Made by a program: the position numbers and the translations under genes | The notes under the pieces: generated by a model | The model's input: the letters and a program-made list of their open reading frames with translations, nothing else | Database searches by the model: none | What the model was told of the DNA's origin: nothing | Part shown: positions 14,626-60,340 of the stretch, piece by piece | Layout: each line of letters begins with the position of its first letter | Numbering within the stretch: the stretch's first letter is position 1 | Assembly: GCA_964016885.1 (NCBI GenBank) | Contig: OZ024743.1 | Coordinates: 345,960,001 to 346,024,000 of the forward strand | Source of the DNA: Eledone cirrhosa | Taxonomy: Eukaryota | DNA length: 64,000 nucleotides | Direction of reading: 5' to 3'

Positions 14626-16420
14626 CAGTTGCATTTAACAATAATGAGTGATTATTGTTTGCTTAAAAAAGGGGGAAAAAAGAAATATTTTTATAAAGCA
14701 CATCATGCAAAATACTAAAAAGTAATGAAAGAATGAAATGTATATCAATGATGACGTCATAGAATAAGCAAGGAGTCGAACATTTGCTGAGAGGTCTTCT
14801 AGACTATCAATTAGTCAAACAAACATGTAACATGTCTTCTACAGCAATAACAACTTGCCAGCAAACATACCTAAATAAAAATGGCTACTAAGTGACTAGC
14901 ATAAAATAAATAAATAATAACAAAATAACAAAATCAACAGATTGCCATGAGATAACAATGAAACTGATCATCAATAGATCTACAGAATTAACTGACCATC
15001 ATAGCACCAACAACAGATCAAGAAAAACAACTCACCATATATTGACCGGAGAAAATACGACCAGAATATAAGCAGCGTACGAGTGTTTTATGCGATTTCA
15101 TGTTATCTAACTCCACTAGTGTCAATATTAAAAGTGTTAGGCATACGTTTGCTTAGAGACTTCAGCGATTTTCTTTTCAGATAAATTTAGAAGGGAGGGC
15201 AGTGCTCCTTACATATTTAAGGATCTCTGAGCTCGACGGGTGTTAAGATTTTATCCTCGAGCAGGAGTCATGGTCCGAATGTTTGCATAAGGCACTCACG
15301 AGCAAGTGCTAACGGTCTTAAACCCGCTGATGAATAAATTAATCCACCCAAGTAGGGAACAACAACATTTAAATTAAGAGCTCTAAGGGCCAGAAAAAAT
15401 AACGCAAGACGTCGCACCTGAAGCATAATAATTCTACCAGCCCATCACATTAGGCTCAGAGTACTGGAACAAATACTGCACGTTATAATGACACTTTCAA
15501 TTCGAAGCTTTGTGCTACATGTTACAGATCCCTTCATATTGAATTCAAATTCCACCAAAGCAAAATATATCTTTCATTCTTTCGACAACATTATATAAGT
15601 AAAGTCTCCCCCCTAAATAAACAGCAGGAGGAAATGCTTTGCGTTATATCTGTCGGGTTTAACAATTAGAGTACTAGTGGTGTGAATTTCTAATGAAAAC
15701 TCATTTATTAACACGTTAATATAACGGGCAGGCCATTCCATTGATAGAAACCTGAAACACTGATCTTTGAAGCCAACGTTAAATTCAATTTAACCACTCA
15801 TAAACCATTGCATCTTCAAAATAGTTGCAGAATATATGACGATCTCGGTGTAGATATCGCTAAAATAATCCCAAAAAATGTAGTGCCCTTCCTATTGCAA
15901 TATATATATTTATATATTAACGTCCAGCCACGTGGGGGTGTTTATTTCATATCCCATCACAATATCTCAAACAATATTCATCCTCAATATAAAAGCATGT
16001 TTGATGTTAAGAATTTATGGAAAATTTCTAAAACTTGCCTTGAAAAGTATTTTAAAGACTCTGCTGTGATTCATTCACGAACAGAATCTCCAGTTCAGTA
16101 TTTGTTGGACGTCCATAAACATTTTGTTGTTTAGTACTAAATAAAACCTTTGATCACACATATGATCAGCAGTGTTTCATACGCGAAAATCTTGTAAGTG
16201 TCCATTTTTCAAGAACATATACTGATATTTACAACGCCCCAAAATCACCAAATGCAGGTCTCCCCCTCCCTCTCTCTCTCTCTCCCTCTCTACTAAATAT
16301 ATATATATATATAAAGTAAACTGCGAATTCCCAAATTCCTTCAATATATATATATATATATATATATATATATATATATATAGAAAGTACATGAATCAAA
16401 GTTCTGTTTAAATCATTTAT

Positions 16421-16469
16421 TTGCTTACAATTGTTTCTTCCAAACCGAGGTTTGGTGTCTTCGGAGCAA
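16421..16469 (-). ncRNA. Type I hammerhead ribozyme variant (CCGAAGA core)
   Basis: Minus strand: UUGCU-CCGAAGA-CA-CCAAACC UC GGUUUGG-AA-GAA-ACAAUUGU-A-AGCAA, then AAUAAA. Confidence 0.7.
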
Positions 16470-17327
16470 TTATTCAGTGATTTTTTACATACTTGACCTC
16501 CTTTTCAACACAAGAGACAAGAGACATATAGAAACATATGTATATATTGACCCACAGTGGGTTGACATCCATTATAATAATATAGCATGGCAATTTACAT
16601 ACAAAGATTACAGTCATATTAAAGGACAAAATTAAAGTTAAAATTAAAATTAAAATTAAAATTAAAATAAAACATTGGCAGTTTACGAAGATAAAGCAAG
16701 AGGATAGTTTGGAGTAGCCAGTGTATACAACAGTCACACGTAAGGCATGCACGCGTGTCCTATTTATACACGATTATAGTGCGGCAGATTGTTACATGTA
16801 AAACAAGCAGTCAAAGCAGGCAAACAAGAGCATCATGGGCGCTGTACTGGTTCTAACATGGTTCACCAGGCACCCAATGTTGAATCAGCCTGGATTGTGT
16901 GATGGACATGTAGTCTATAAATTGCGTTTCCTGGATTGTGAGAGTGGTGGTGTGTGCTAGGACAGTGGTGTTGTTTTGCTTCTCATTTGTAATATTTTTG
17001 ATATTGTTGGTGTTTCTCTACACACGGGCTTCTATATCGTACAGGTGTGTGTGAAAAATGGTTTACCAGTACAGCCCCCATGATGCTCTTGATTGCCTCC
17101 AAACTATCCTCTTGCTTTATCTTCGTAAACTGCCAATGTTTTATTTTAATTTTAATTTTAATTTAACTTTAATGTTGTCCTTTAATATGACTGTAATCTT
17201 TGTATGTAAATTGCCATGCTATATTATTATAATAGATGTCAACCCACTGTGGGTTAATATATACATATGTTTCTATATGTCTCTTGTGTTGAAAAGGAGG
17301 TCAAGTATGTAAAAAATCACTGAATAA

Positions 17328-17376
17328 TTGCTCCGAAGACACCAAACCACGGTTTGGAAGAAACAATTGTAAGCAA
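17328..17376 (+). ncRNA. Type I hammerhead ribozyme variant (CCGAAGA core)
   Basis: Stem I UUGCU/AGCAA, stem II CCAAACC/GGUUUGG, palindromic stem III ACAAUUGU, GUA site ending 17371, AATAAA at 17376. Confidence 0.7.
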
Positions 17377-17591
17377 ATAAATGATTTAAACAGAACTTTG
17401 ATTCACGTACTTTCTATATAACTGCTCTGTAAAACAACTGATGTTGTTACATTGAGCTATTTATCTTACTGGTAATAAGATAGTAATAAATTACTGTCTT
17501 TCACTATTTAGGGTTTAAAATATATATAACTATAAAAGGTTTTAGTATATACATAACCATAAATAGTATCCTTAATACTATATAAATATAT

Positions 17592-57546: not shown

Positions 57547-58195
57547 AAATACAATATGTTGAAAAGGTAACACAGTATAGAGAGATAGTGCGTCATCAAT
57601 AAAACATGAAAAAACTACCAGTGTATGTAAGCTAATGTAATCTATAACCTATGAAAGGCAGGGTAGACACACGATAATTAAAAATATAAATTAAAGTGTA
57701 TATACATACTTCAATAGCTATATAACACACGTACAAATCCAAAGAGATCTGTTTCGCCAATAAGTTGTTGACCCTGTTTGGTTGAGCACACTTCTCTGAG
57801 TGGTTTTGCGCTGCCCTTTCTAGCAGCTCGTCCCTCAGACACCACTGGTTCACCGCCCTAAACACGCTGTGACTTCTCTCTCCCAGGTGTAACTGGACGG
57901 TCACTTTAAATTCTCTTAGAGTTGTCTGAAATGTATAGCCTTACACACGCTGATGAACCATGGGCTATTTCATTTCTGTCAACAACTTATTGGCGAAACA
58001 GATCTCTTTGGATTTGTACGTGTGTGTTATATAGTTATAGAGGTATGTATATACACTTTAATTTATATTTTTAATTATCGTGTGTCTACCCTGCCTTTCA
58101 TAGGTTATAGATTCCATACACTGGTGGTTTTTCCCTGTTTTATTGATGGCGCACTATCTCTCTCAAGTGTGTTACCTTTTCAACATATTGTATTT
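57547..58195. repeat. Inverted repeat (arms about 220 bp) of pLTR-like sequence
   Basis: 57547-57771 is the reverse complement of about 57978-58195. Confidence 0.9.
57943..58025 (+). ncRNA. Type I hammerhead ribozyme with a full 8-bp stem III
   Basis: ACACACG-CUGAUGA-ACCAUGGG...CUUAUUGGC-GAA-ACAGAUCU CUUU GGAUUUGU-A-CGUGUGU. GUA site ends at 58018. The 10.1-11.1 pair is A-C. Confidence 0.82.
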
Positions 58196-58933
58196 TATAT
58201 ATAAATATAAATATATATATATATATATATATATACATATATATATATATATATATATATATATATATATATATATATATTAGAAAATGTGGGTTTTTTT
58301 ACAAAATGAAAAAAACGAGACGTCCCACTCGAGTGACAGTATAAGGAAAATAGATGAAGTCGAAAATGCAACTGGAGTCTTTTTAAGAATATTTATTTGG
58401 TTCCTTTATCGGTTTCGCAGTTCTTGTGCTTTTCAAAAGCAGAATTGAGATGGAGGGTTTGTGGTTTTTCTCGCATCTCGCATATATATATGTGTGTGTG
58501 TATAAATATGTACATATATATATATATATCTACGACAATACAAATCTCCCTCCCTATGCTGTATACTATAAACATTATTTTCTCATCGTCACTCCATCCT
58601 TATTCAATTTTTTTGCTTTCGTGCATGAGATATTTCTATACTTCTAGTCACTCTGTTTTTCCTCATCTGTTTCTCTCTCTGTCTTTCACTTCTTCTTTCT
58701 TCAATAATTTAAATTATTTAAATCTCTAACATTTATGTAAGTTTGTATTATATTAGTAGTTGTTTATTATTATGTATCTTTATAAGCTTTCTCAAACGCA
58801 CCCTCTGTATTATATGTAATTTTTTCATGTCTCAATCTTAAGGTATAAAAATATTGAGTTTTGTCATTTCTTATTCACTGCCATGACTGAATTTTTAACC
58901 ATCTACTTAGTCAGGATATGTCATGCATCATCT

Positions 58934-58995
58934 TATTTTATCTGATGAGGGCGTACTGTTGAAGATAGCTCCTCTGAAATATGTATAATAAAATA
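58934..58995 (+). ncRNA. Type I hammerhead ribozyme (Naiad pLTR family), stem II decayed
   Basis: UAUUUUAU-CUGAUGA-...-GAA-AUAUGUAU-A-AUAAAAUA. Flanks are homologous to 21090-21290 and 42670-42870. Confidence 0.72.
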
Positions 58996-60215
58996 TAATT
59001 GATCACACGAATGTCTATTTTTGTTAATATTTTGAATTAATATTAATAACTCCGGAAAACCATTACTCTGGAGTGCTTCTAATATATTGTAAAACTTTAT
59101 TCTTTGATTTATTAATTGAACCTTGTTTAACCTTTAAATATATATATATATATATATATATATATATATATATATATATATATATATATATATATATATA
59201 TATACATATATATATATATAGTGAGAGAGAGAGGGGGAGGGATAGTAAGGAAGATACAGATTGAGAGAGAATCAAGTAAAAACATATAAAAGATATCGAG
59301 TTTGATAGATAGTGAGATGTTTTATTTTCAATGAACTGGCAGAAAGAAACATATATACACAACATTGAGAATTTGATATCAACGGTAACTGATAGATGAA
59401 AAAAGTAGACCCGAAATATCAAACTAAATGATTTTGCATAGATAACAGAGATATTTAGGACCATACAGGTAAAAAATTCATTGTTCAGTGTCTAAGATGT
59501 CTTCCAGAAGATTCGTGTTCAACGAAAATACGAAACAACTCAGGATCCATGAAAAATATGCGTAAAAAGAAAATATTTCATAGAAAATCTAGAAAAGTAA
59601 ATTTCCAAAATAAAACAATATTTAAAAAAATAAACATATATATGCTTTGATATGCATAAATATGCCCACCACGACCCTAAGCACACGCAAATCTATGACT
59701 ATATATATATATATATTTTTTTTTTTGAATTTGTTTTGCCAAATTTCTTATCTGAAAACTTGTGTCGAAACAGATATTCTCACAATTTGGGAGGGTCAAG
59801 CTGCCAAACACACGCACCTGTTCGGTTCACTTCAATTCATCATACATTTCCCGGATGCTTGTTTATATATTATCAAAGCTCAATCGTCACACTTTCAGTG
59901 TACTCCCTAGTGACTAGGTTTTTACTTAGATTCTCACCTTTGTTCTTTCCTACACCATCTTCTGAAAACCAACAGGTACGTGCGGTTTTATTGGCAGCAT
60001 AACCCTCCCAAAGTATAACAATATATATATATATATAATTCAAGAAAGAAGAGTGACATGCGAAAGTGAGGAAGATACACAAGGCATGGCTTTTATATTT
60101 CTTACTTGTATTGATGTTATTATTTTAACTATTCAGTATCTAGTTATTTTATTATTGATATTGTTATTCTGGTTTAATACCACTCCTCTATAACCTTGTG
60201 TGTCTTCCTCACTTT

Positions 60216-60340
60216 CGCATGCTCTGATGAAAACGCCTGGTTATAAACAAAGTATTTGAGATCGATCGACGCAACATCAAGCGAGTAGTGAACTCTAGAC
60301 CTGCCAGATCAAAGAAATAATTGTCAGCAATGCGAATAAA
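60216..60340 (+). ncRNA. Type I hammerhead ribozyme with an 83-nt stem II region
   Basis: CGCAUGCU-CUGAUGA-(83 nt)-GAA-AUAAUUGU-C-AGCAAUGCG-AAUAAA. Canonical GUC site ends at 60325. Confidence 0.72.

Follow-up and report, generated by a model that had tools for sequence, protein, structure and literature searches.

A 64,000-nucleotide stretch of the Eledone cirrhosa genome (assembly GCA_964016885.1, contig OZ024743.1, positions 345,960,001 to 346,024,000 of the forward strand; hereafter the window, numbered from its first letter) carries 11 named hammerhead ribozyme motifs. These most likely mark the 3' ends (pseudo-long terminal repeats, pseudo-LTRs) of 5'-truncated Penelope-like elements (PLEs), probably mostly of the (TA)n-targeting Hydra clade, which have accumulated in microsatellites. 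Four features were observed directly: the motifs, their place upstream of (TA)n, inverted head-to-head copies of which a single arm is tailed, and Hydra-type endonuclease remnants that precede two copies of family A, the commonest family. Hydra membership was tested for family A and for the open reading frame (ORF) remnants; families B, C, D, F and G are likely members judging from (TA)n targeting and hammerhead shape, while the family E motif has the appearance of canonical minimal PLE hammerheads from another clade.

Hammerhead motifs, families and their setting

Both strands of the window were searched with a strict type I descriptor (CUGANGA, GAAA and UH boxes; stem I of at least 4 bp, stem II of at least 3 bp; stem III self-pairing or a hairpin), and dinucleotide shuffles in 1-kb blocks served as controls. 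Six matches were obtained (cores 18376-, 19218-, 21126+, 25372+, 57311+ and 58942+), compared to a mean of 0.005 and a maximum of 1 per window in the shuffles (n=200). Relaxed descriptors were devised post hoc, with the sites already known. Permitting one unpaired base on each side of the stem II foot gained 57950+ (7 matches; shuffles 0.047, n=150), permitting C at core position 4 and a 2x2 loop at the stem II foot gained 16464- and 17333+ (9 matches; shuffles 0.107, n=150), and leaving stem II unchecked gained 60224+ (10 matches; shuffles mean 0.85, maximum 4, n=150). The remaining motif, 42702+, failed every descriptor, its stem I being broken at the second pair. A type I core (CUGANGA, GAAA, UH) with stems I to III, open at stem I, was found in six motifs by the strict descriptor and in seven when relaxed; the other four depart from type I or require an altered core.

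The enrichment over shuffles is real, though fewer motifs are intact than were first counted. An initial annotation of the window had given correct coordinates for all 13 of the sites it named and had placed motifs on both strands (8 of the 11 are on the plus strand and 3 on the minus), both of which were borne out, but its figure of at least ten well-formed motifs among the 11 fell to seven, with four damaged or atypical. The Rfam search that it recommended returned no hammerhead in the window at gathering score; in E-value mode no hammerhead was found among the 150 of 282 matches listed, which contained microsatellite hairpin matches only. A core scan allowing one mismatch gained a single site, 51410+, which was rejected, lying inside a long interspersed nuclear element (LINE) and at chance level (0-3 in shuffles).

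Self-comparison of the window collapsed the 11 motifs to nine insertions and seven families. Family A comprises 19218-/21126+ (one insertion), 42702+ and 58942+, family B comprises 16464-/17333+, and C, D, E, F and G are single. The motifs and partial motifs are as follows.

16421..16469, minus strand: inverted copy of the family B hammerhead-like motif, with core CCGAAGA, a palindromic stem III and a 2x2 loop at the stem II foot; the arm ends at (TA)n
17328..17376, plus strand: direct copy of the hammerhead-like motif of family B; divergence between the arms 1.5%
18327..18381, minus strand: well-formed type I hammerhead of family C, its stem III an 8-nt palindrome; in a 264-bp segment flanked by two (TA)n arrays
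19168..19230, minus strand: family A hammerhead A1, the best-formed, with a 12-bp stem I; predicted cut after 19180, within AATAAA
core 21126, plus strand: family A hammerhead A2; one private change in stem I; in the inverted partner 20862..21317
25368..25425, plus strand: family D type I hammerhead; weak stems (4 and 3 bp); AATAAA 11 nt past the predicted cut
26827..26867, minus strand: partial motif; core boxes and stem II present, stem I lacking
42569..42907, plus strand: A4, a 3' end of family A that stops at (TA)n; its hammerhead (core 42702) is damaged
42980..43076, minus strand: partial motif; core boxes, 4-bp stem II foot and 90-nt domain II, stem I lacking
57307..57342, plus strand: minimal PLE hammerhead of classical form (family E), with a 4-nt palindrome and an additional A following A9
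57547..57772, minus strand: family F inverted copy, truncated in loop II with only the 3' half of the ribozyme; tail of about 80 nt to (TA)n
57942..58026, plus strand: family F hammerhead; stable 8-bp hairpin stem III, unpaired 10.1/11.1; the only motif predicted to fold as a monomer
58934..58995, plus strand: family A hammerhead A3, well-formed; element end at (TA)n, 150 nt past the predicted cut
60216..60334, plus strand: atypical motif of family G, with stems I and III but no paired foot to its 82-nt domain II

Five families (A, B, C, D and G) have an 8-nt palindromic stem III that pairs with itself (self-duplex of -4 to -8 kcal/mol at 25 C) and has no monomer fold; in E the palindrome is 4 nt long, and in F stem III is a hairpin of 8 bp. 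Dimers between families were rejected by inspection, because dimers swap stem I strands and these are non-complementary between families. Among family A copies the changes at the stem II foot and in stem I were one-sided and mostly preserved pairing, while A2 and A4 carry breaking changes; in the table of cut sites and stem III, the A4 row was out of register by one base. A pair count over a mixed-family alignment was set aside, as that alignment was not structural and its matches had been picked for pairing.

A stretch of (TA)6 or longer was present within 250 nt downstream of the predicted cut in 10 of the 11 motifs (background 24%), and eight of the nine insertions had downstream (TA)n within 300 nt (binomial 2e-4); the 3' ends of family A stop in register at (TA)n. 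AATAAA overlapped the predicted cut or lay no more than 13 nt from it in 9 of 11 motifs and five of seven families, compared to 5% of random 42-nt windows. In family A the predicted cut follows the first A of AATAAA and the hexamer belongs to stem I, so AT-rich stem composition may contribute to the excess. The 3' end of family D recurs at 39978-40152 (73%) with no hammerhead, beside a short inverted piece between (TA)n arrays (39894-40002).

Insertion anatomy and endonuclease remnants

Three inverted pairs were located by self-comparison: 19124-19482/20862-21220 (family A), 16377-16714/17097-17420 (family B) and 57547-57772/57978-58195 (family F). The family A insertion (19118-21317) is bounded by (TA)n on both sides. 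Between them lie first a copy on the minus strand and then, head to head with it, 456 nt on the plus strand that include a 97-nt tail; these two parts are listed below.

19124..20868, minus strand: family A long copy; endonuclease fragment at the truncated 5' end, AT-rich spacer, hammerhead, and tail-less end at (TA)n
20862..21317, plus strand: family A inverted partner; the last 456 nt of the element with A2 and a 97-nt tail, then (TA)n

An inverted, 5'-truncated copy with a tail at one end was observed in families A, B, F and G. This is a published PLE insertion pattern, and the optional tail has been attributed to two internal reverse-transcription start sites in an anole element. The arms of the family A pair differ by 3.9% (14 differences) and those of family B by 1.5%. 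In family G the inverted copy (60037-60084, minus, compared to 60194-60383, plus) lacks the entire hammerhead, with about 140 nt gone between two short ATG repeats that flank the ribozyme, as a template jump would yield.

Endonuclease-like pieces were first spotted by six-frame reading of the window. The piece near 63 kb had 2802 relatives at E<=0.001 in a full HMMER scan, and one long relative used as query gave 2023 further sequences; two word-seeded protein searches with the short endonuclease pieces gave no match, and two of the pieces were unrecognised by Pfam. A profile was built from 103 full-length homologues fetched through the endonuclease, with reversed sequences as controls (best 2.2 bits). 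The motifs DK[TS], RW[KR], CxCX5C and CxxCxxE, which define the Hydra clade of PLEs (PMC8557442), were present in 102, 74, 80 and 103 of these homologues, respectively. The profile matched the window at 28839-29174 (plus), 35263-35598 (minus), 40207-41254 (plus) and 62970-63857 (minus), and weakly at 20776-20868 (minus, 10.4 bits). The remnants are as follows.

20776..20868, minus strand: 31-codon fragment of a Hydra-type GIY-YIG endonuclease at the inversion junction of the family A pair; 10.4 bits compared to 2.2 in controls
28839..29243, plus strand: Hydra-type endonuclease remnant in the left arm of a 7.5-kb inverted duplication; downstream hammerhead not found
35194..35598, minus strand: mirror copy of the 28839..29243 remnant in the other arm of the duplication
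40207..41320, plus strand: 5'-truncated Hydra-type ORF remnant with thumb, CxCX5C linker and GIY-YIG endonuclease; stops, frameshifts and a short interspersed nuclear element (SINE) at 40689-40829; begins at (TA)n
62913..63857, minus strand: Hydra-type thumb and endonuclease remnant, 91.8 bits; downstream hammerhead not found

The CxCX5C linker before the GIY-YIG endonuclease could be read in the 40.8-kb remnant, the others being truncated or frameshifted at that place. By eye, CxxC-E-N-CxH was present in the 63-kb remnant and CxxC-E in the 29- and 41-kb remnants, and a single Cys was seen within the GIY-YIG core; Hydra elements are distinguished by CxxC/CxH around E and N and by having no CCHH. 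The reverse transcriptase core is absent from the window, and it was in the homologues fetched through the endonuclease that its RWK- and DKT-type motifs were read.

The link between hammerhead and ORF was provided by family A, the only family with a hammerhead downstream of a Hydra-type ORF on the same strand (two of three insertions). At the DNA level the 20776-20868 fragment can be aligned with the 41-kb remnant (z 3.8). The aligned anchors (20847 and 41061) belong to two separate insertions, and the distance downstream to a hammerhead core on the same strand is 1.63 kb for the first and, after subtraction of a SINE, 1.44 kb for the second. Two further candidates were unsupported: an inverted ORF N-terminus at 41330-41800 (control on the plus strand at 41500-41820, -2.5 bits), and an endonuclease end before family E at 57215-57253 (tblastn E 0.35; neither Pfam nor the profile supported it).

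Several results weigh against assigning the motifs to Hydra-type PLEs. With no reverse transcriptase core in the window, the motifs of that enzyme are unreadable there; the spacers of A1 and A4 fail to align (z near 0 in 8 of 11 segments); three of the five endonuclease remnants have no downstream hammerhead; and upstream of A3 and of the motifs of families B to G the profile scored below 0 bits throughout, with no ORF remnant detected. Pfam, applied to 96 open frames, returned only LINE, mariner and zinc-finger matches and two weak unrelated ones, and no two-sided compensatory change was found among family A copies. Published Hydra elements have the hammerhead about 100-300 nt past the ORF and tails of 30-40 nt, whereas the window has a 1.2-1.5-kb spacer (family A) and tails of 80-97 nt. 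Absence of an upstream ORF is, however, expected from 5' truncation, and a PLE origin of the pseudo-LTRs, which the initial annotation had also proposed along with several unrelated families, inverted pairs, nearby AATAAA and a palindromic stem III suited to dimers, agrees with the (TA)n setting, the inverted copies with one-sided tails and the endonuclease remnants.

Other repeats were recorded in the same stretch. The 7.5-kb inverted duplication (28479-35994), which has a Hydra endonuclease remnant in each arm, differs between arms by 0.67% outside microsatellites (20/2972) and has a small fold-back (32045-32306, related to 29571-29810) at its axis; it could be PLE-made, recent, or an assembly fold-back. 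An older fold-back at 17586-18004 (arms 16% diverged) has a differently damaged hammerhead-like remnant in each arm (about 17759, minus, and 17832, plus), and in the fold-back repeats at 18866-18981, 24607-25026, 28237-28298 and 46983-47026 no hammerhead was found. A multi-copy SINE-like repeat occurs at 1450, 6242, 37805, 40689, 41939 and 48930-49592, with two copies (40689, 41939) inside the 40-43-kb Hydra element; we take it to be of octopus type. Decayed LINE reverse transcriptases were found at 50500-52335 (plus), 52713-55442 (minus) and 23200-23960 (plus), the first two recognised by Pfam as RVT_1; these are presumably RTE-like and Dong/R4-like. An inverted pair of mariner-like transposase N-terminal fragments (HTH_48) lies at 46105-46856.

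Mobility, predicted folding and alternative explanations

Published PLE work suggests how such insertions would arise: the GIY-YIG endonuclease of the element would nick (TA)n, and the reverse transcriptase would start near the RNA 3' end, usually stop early and often leave an inverted second copy, with two start sites accounting for the optional tail. In a parent element transcribed as a partial tandem, two ribozymes might pair through the palindromic stem III, perhaps aided by protein, and excise the unit RNA. The copies in the window are likely decaying and mostly inactive, since they have no tandem partner and would be sequestered by the inverted arm.

Alternatively, the hammerhead families may be mainly short, non-autonomous, ORF-less elements, dispersed and mobilised in trans by Hydra-type PLE proteins, which is possible but on balance unlikely. 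Non-autonomous PLE derivatives have been published, and six of the families have no upstream ORF. In addition, the endonuclease C-terminus of the A1 copy is unrecognisable past 20776 (-1.4 bits, compared to 15.8-66.9 in three other remnants); given an arm divergence of just 3.9%, the A1 donor may already have been ORF-dead.

Other genomic copies of family A bear on this question. Contigs from three runs of one sample, which come from a single study and may not be independent of the window, were placed on 19483-21315 with a similarity cut-off of 80% and covered 30 of 30 bins of the family A stretch. The A1 spacer is covered by many contigs and is therefore a family trait rather than unique host DNA; the hammerhead of family A had a summed depth about 100 times that of the spacer, depth being no copy number. 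A contig of depth 221 matches the decayed stretch 20681-20785 with three differences, other long pieces having depths of 4-44, which favours an ORF-less subfamily, although here too contig depth is no measure of copies. Other contigs, however, depart from the window at 20783 and 20857 into endonuclease-like letters (by eye). At 20857, loose ends of 7 and 4 contigs continue the endonuclease frame by eye, with a WNHK-S-FS-like stretch matching the 41-kb endonuclease. Loose ends passing into (AT)n at the tail-less end (21220) numbered 22 and 21 in two runs. Joints between the spacer and the start of the plus-strand arm were seen in four of the 12 listed (19547-21057, 19925-21090, 20080-20866 and 20297-20972; one contig each, short sides of 29-50 letters), as would be left by other head-to-head copies truncated elsewhere. 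Six of the 14 arm differences, 21121 in stem I among them, appear within the 40 of 112 variants listed, and at all six the family letter agrees with A1, so that the decay is private to the A2 arm. The suggestion of the initial annotation that many copies lack an ORF and could be non-autonomous was only partly upheld: missing ORFs are accounted for by 5' truncation alone and family A follows endonuclease remnants, while one family A copy hints at a possible non-autonomous subfamily.

The same annotation had suggested a population of retrozyme-like elements. Non-LTR retrozymes, which are cut to monomers, circularised and re-inserted, resemble the window families in their type I hammerheads, short palindromic stem III, low GC, kinship with PLEs and mostly protein-less copies (PMC7229834; bioRxiv 10.64898/2026.07.22.740005). 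They form tandem 150-450-bp units with a hammerhead in each, however, and no tandem hammerhead-bearing unit was present among 129 Tandem Repeats Finder rows. As such units are lacking, the elements are very unlikely to be retrozymes; same-family copies on the same strand are 16.2 and 21.6 kb apart, family A has endonuclease relics upstream, and the copies are head-to-head and inverted in (TA)n.

It had further been proposed that the motif field cuts read-through transcripts on either strand, and use by the host for cutting or terminating such transcripts would be in keeping with motifs on both strands, with AATAAA at or just past the predicted cut in five families and with the isolated motifs C and F, which are predicted to form their stems. 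In equilibrium folding, to which co-transcriptional order is external, isolated A1, C and F gave stem probabilities of 0.73-0.98 and isolated A2 0.00-0.03. When whole fold-back units were folded (B2, F, A1 and A2; three pairs), no ribozyme stem pair remained in any of the four, the core pairing instead with the antisense arm. Some copies carry private stem-breaking changes (21121; stem I of A4), PLE hammerheads have low cleavage activity alone, and in one purified system, an anole PLE, cleavage required the element's protein, was dispensable for insertion and was reflected in no reads ending at the site. Host use is highly improbable.

Chance motifs or assembly fold-back artefacts in AT-rich repeats have a negligible probability: two sites are only partial and the loosest descriptor reaches 0.85 matches per shuffle, but the strict excess over shuffles, arms 1.5-4% apart with one-sided tails and full contig coverage of the family A stretch rule chance out for the seven well-formed motifs, leaving it for 26867-, 43076- and 60224+.

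Relation to known elements and significance

The Hydra clade of PLEs with a C-terminal endonuclease, hammerheads and (TA)n targets, including Hydra-1_Obim of Octopus bimaculoides, was described by Craig et al. (2021, PMC8557442). The window elements share with it the GIY-YIG endonuclease with CxCX5C linker and CxxC/E/N/CxH tail, the (TA)n targets, a type I hammerhead near the 3' end, with a 3-4-bp stem III and a stem II foot that is often unpaired in the published hammerheads (PMC8557442, supplementary File S2), and an inverted, 5'-truncated copy as in Penelope-13_HM. They differ in that stem III is a perfect loopless 8-nt palindrome in five window families, and AATAAA at the predicted cut was found in five of seven window families compared to 3 of 26 published Hydra rows (AATAAA or ATTAAA, by eye). 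The stem III motif of Hydra-1_Obim was not present in the window, so the window families differ from that element.

The minimal hammerheads described in metazoan PLE pseudo-LTRs (Cervera and De la Pena 2014, PMC4209133) mostly occur singly, and pairs on opposite strands are separated by 100-700 bp. Motif E resembles these in its extra base after A9, G10.1-C11.1, 4-bp stem I and 4-nt palindrome, and differs in having a 3-bp stem II and no linked ORF; most window motifs have a longer stem III. In Pen1_Av of Adineta vaga (PMC3846280), too, the 3' pseudo-LTR is set apart from the ORF by 0.9-1.5 kb of spacer that cannot be aligned from one copy to another, and pseudo-LTRs occur inverted and head to head with an optional tail; Pen1_Av belongs to the Penelope clade rather than Hydra, and the A1 spacer here recurs in contigs. 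A giant squid paper gave 235 Rfam hammerhead hits, and the main text of a 2026 Octopus vulgaris repeat paper is silent on Hydra and hammerheads. In the literature covered, which excluded most subscription papers, no octopus hammerhead survey and no report of the poly(A)-signal/cut geometry was found.

Hydra PLEs, their hammerheads, (TA)n targeting and one Octopus family are thus already known, and the window presents a known arrangement in new families and no new system. Apparently unreported are the 8-nt palindromic stem III, the long spacer, the 80-97-nt tails, AATAAA at the predicted cut in five of seven families, and one possibly non-autonomous subfamily. A bolder proposal, which we consider doubtful, is that many uncatalogued Hydra PLE families, some of them non-autonomous, would cut on or just before their own poly(A) signal, which would set self-cleavage against polyadenylation in a switch at the 3' end. 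Under the same proposal, and provided that the window with its seven well-formed motifs in 64 kb is representative, this genome would rank with the most hammerhead-dense animal genomes.

The motifs are of value for repeat annotation, as Rfam overlooks all of those in the window, and the 4-nt, 8-nt and hairpin variants of stem III constitute a natural series for comparing monomer and dimer cleavage. The finding would carry greater weight if the AATAAA-at-cut geometry proved functional.

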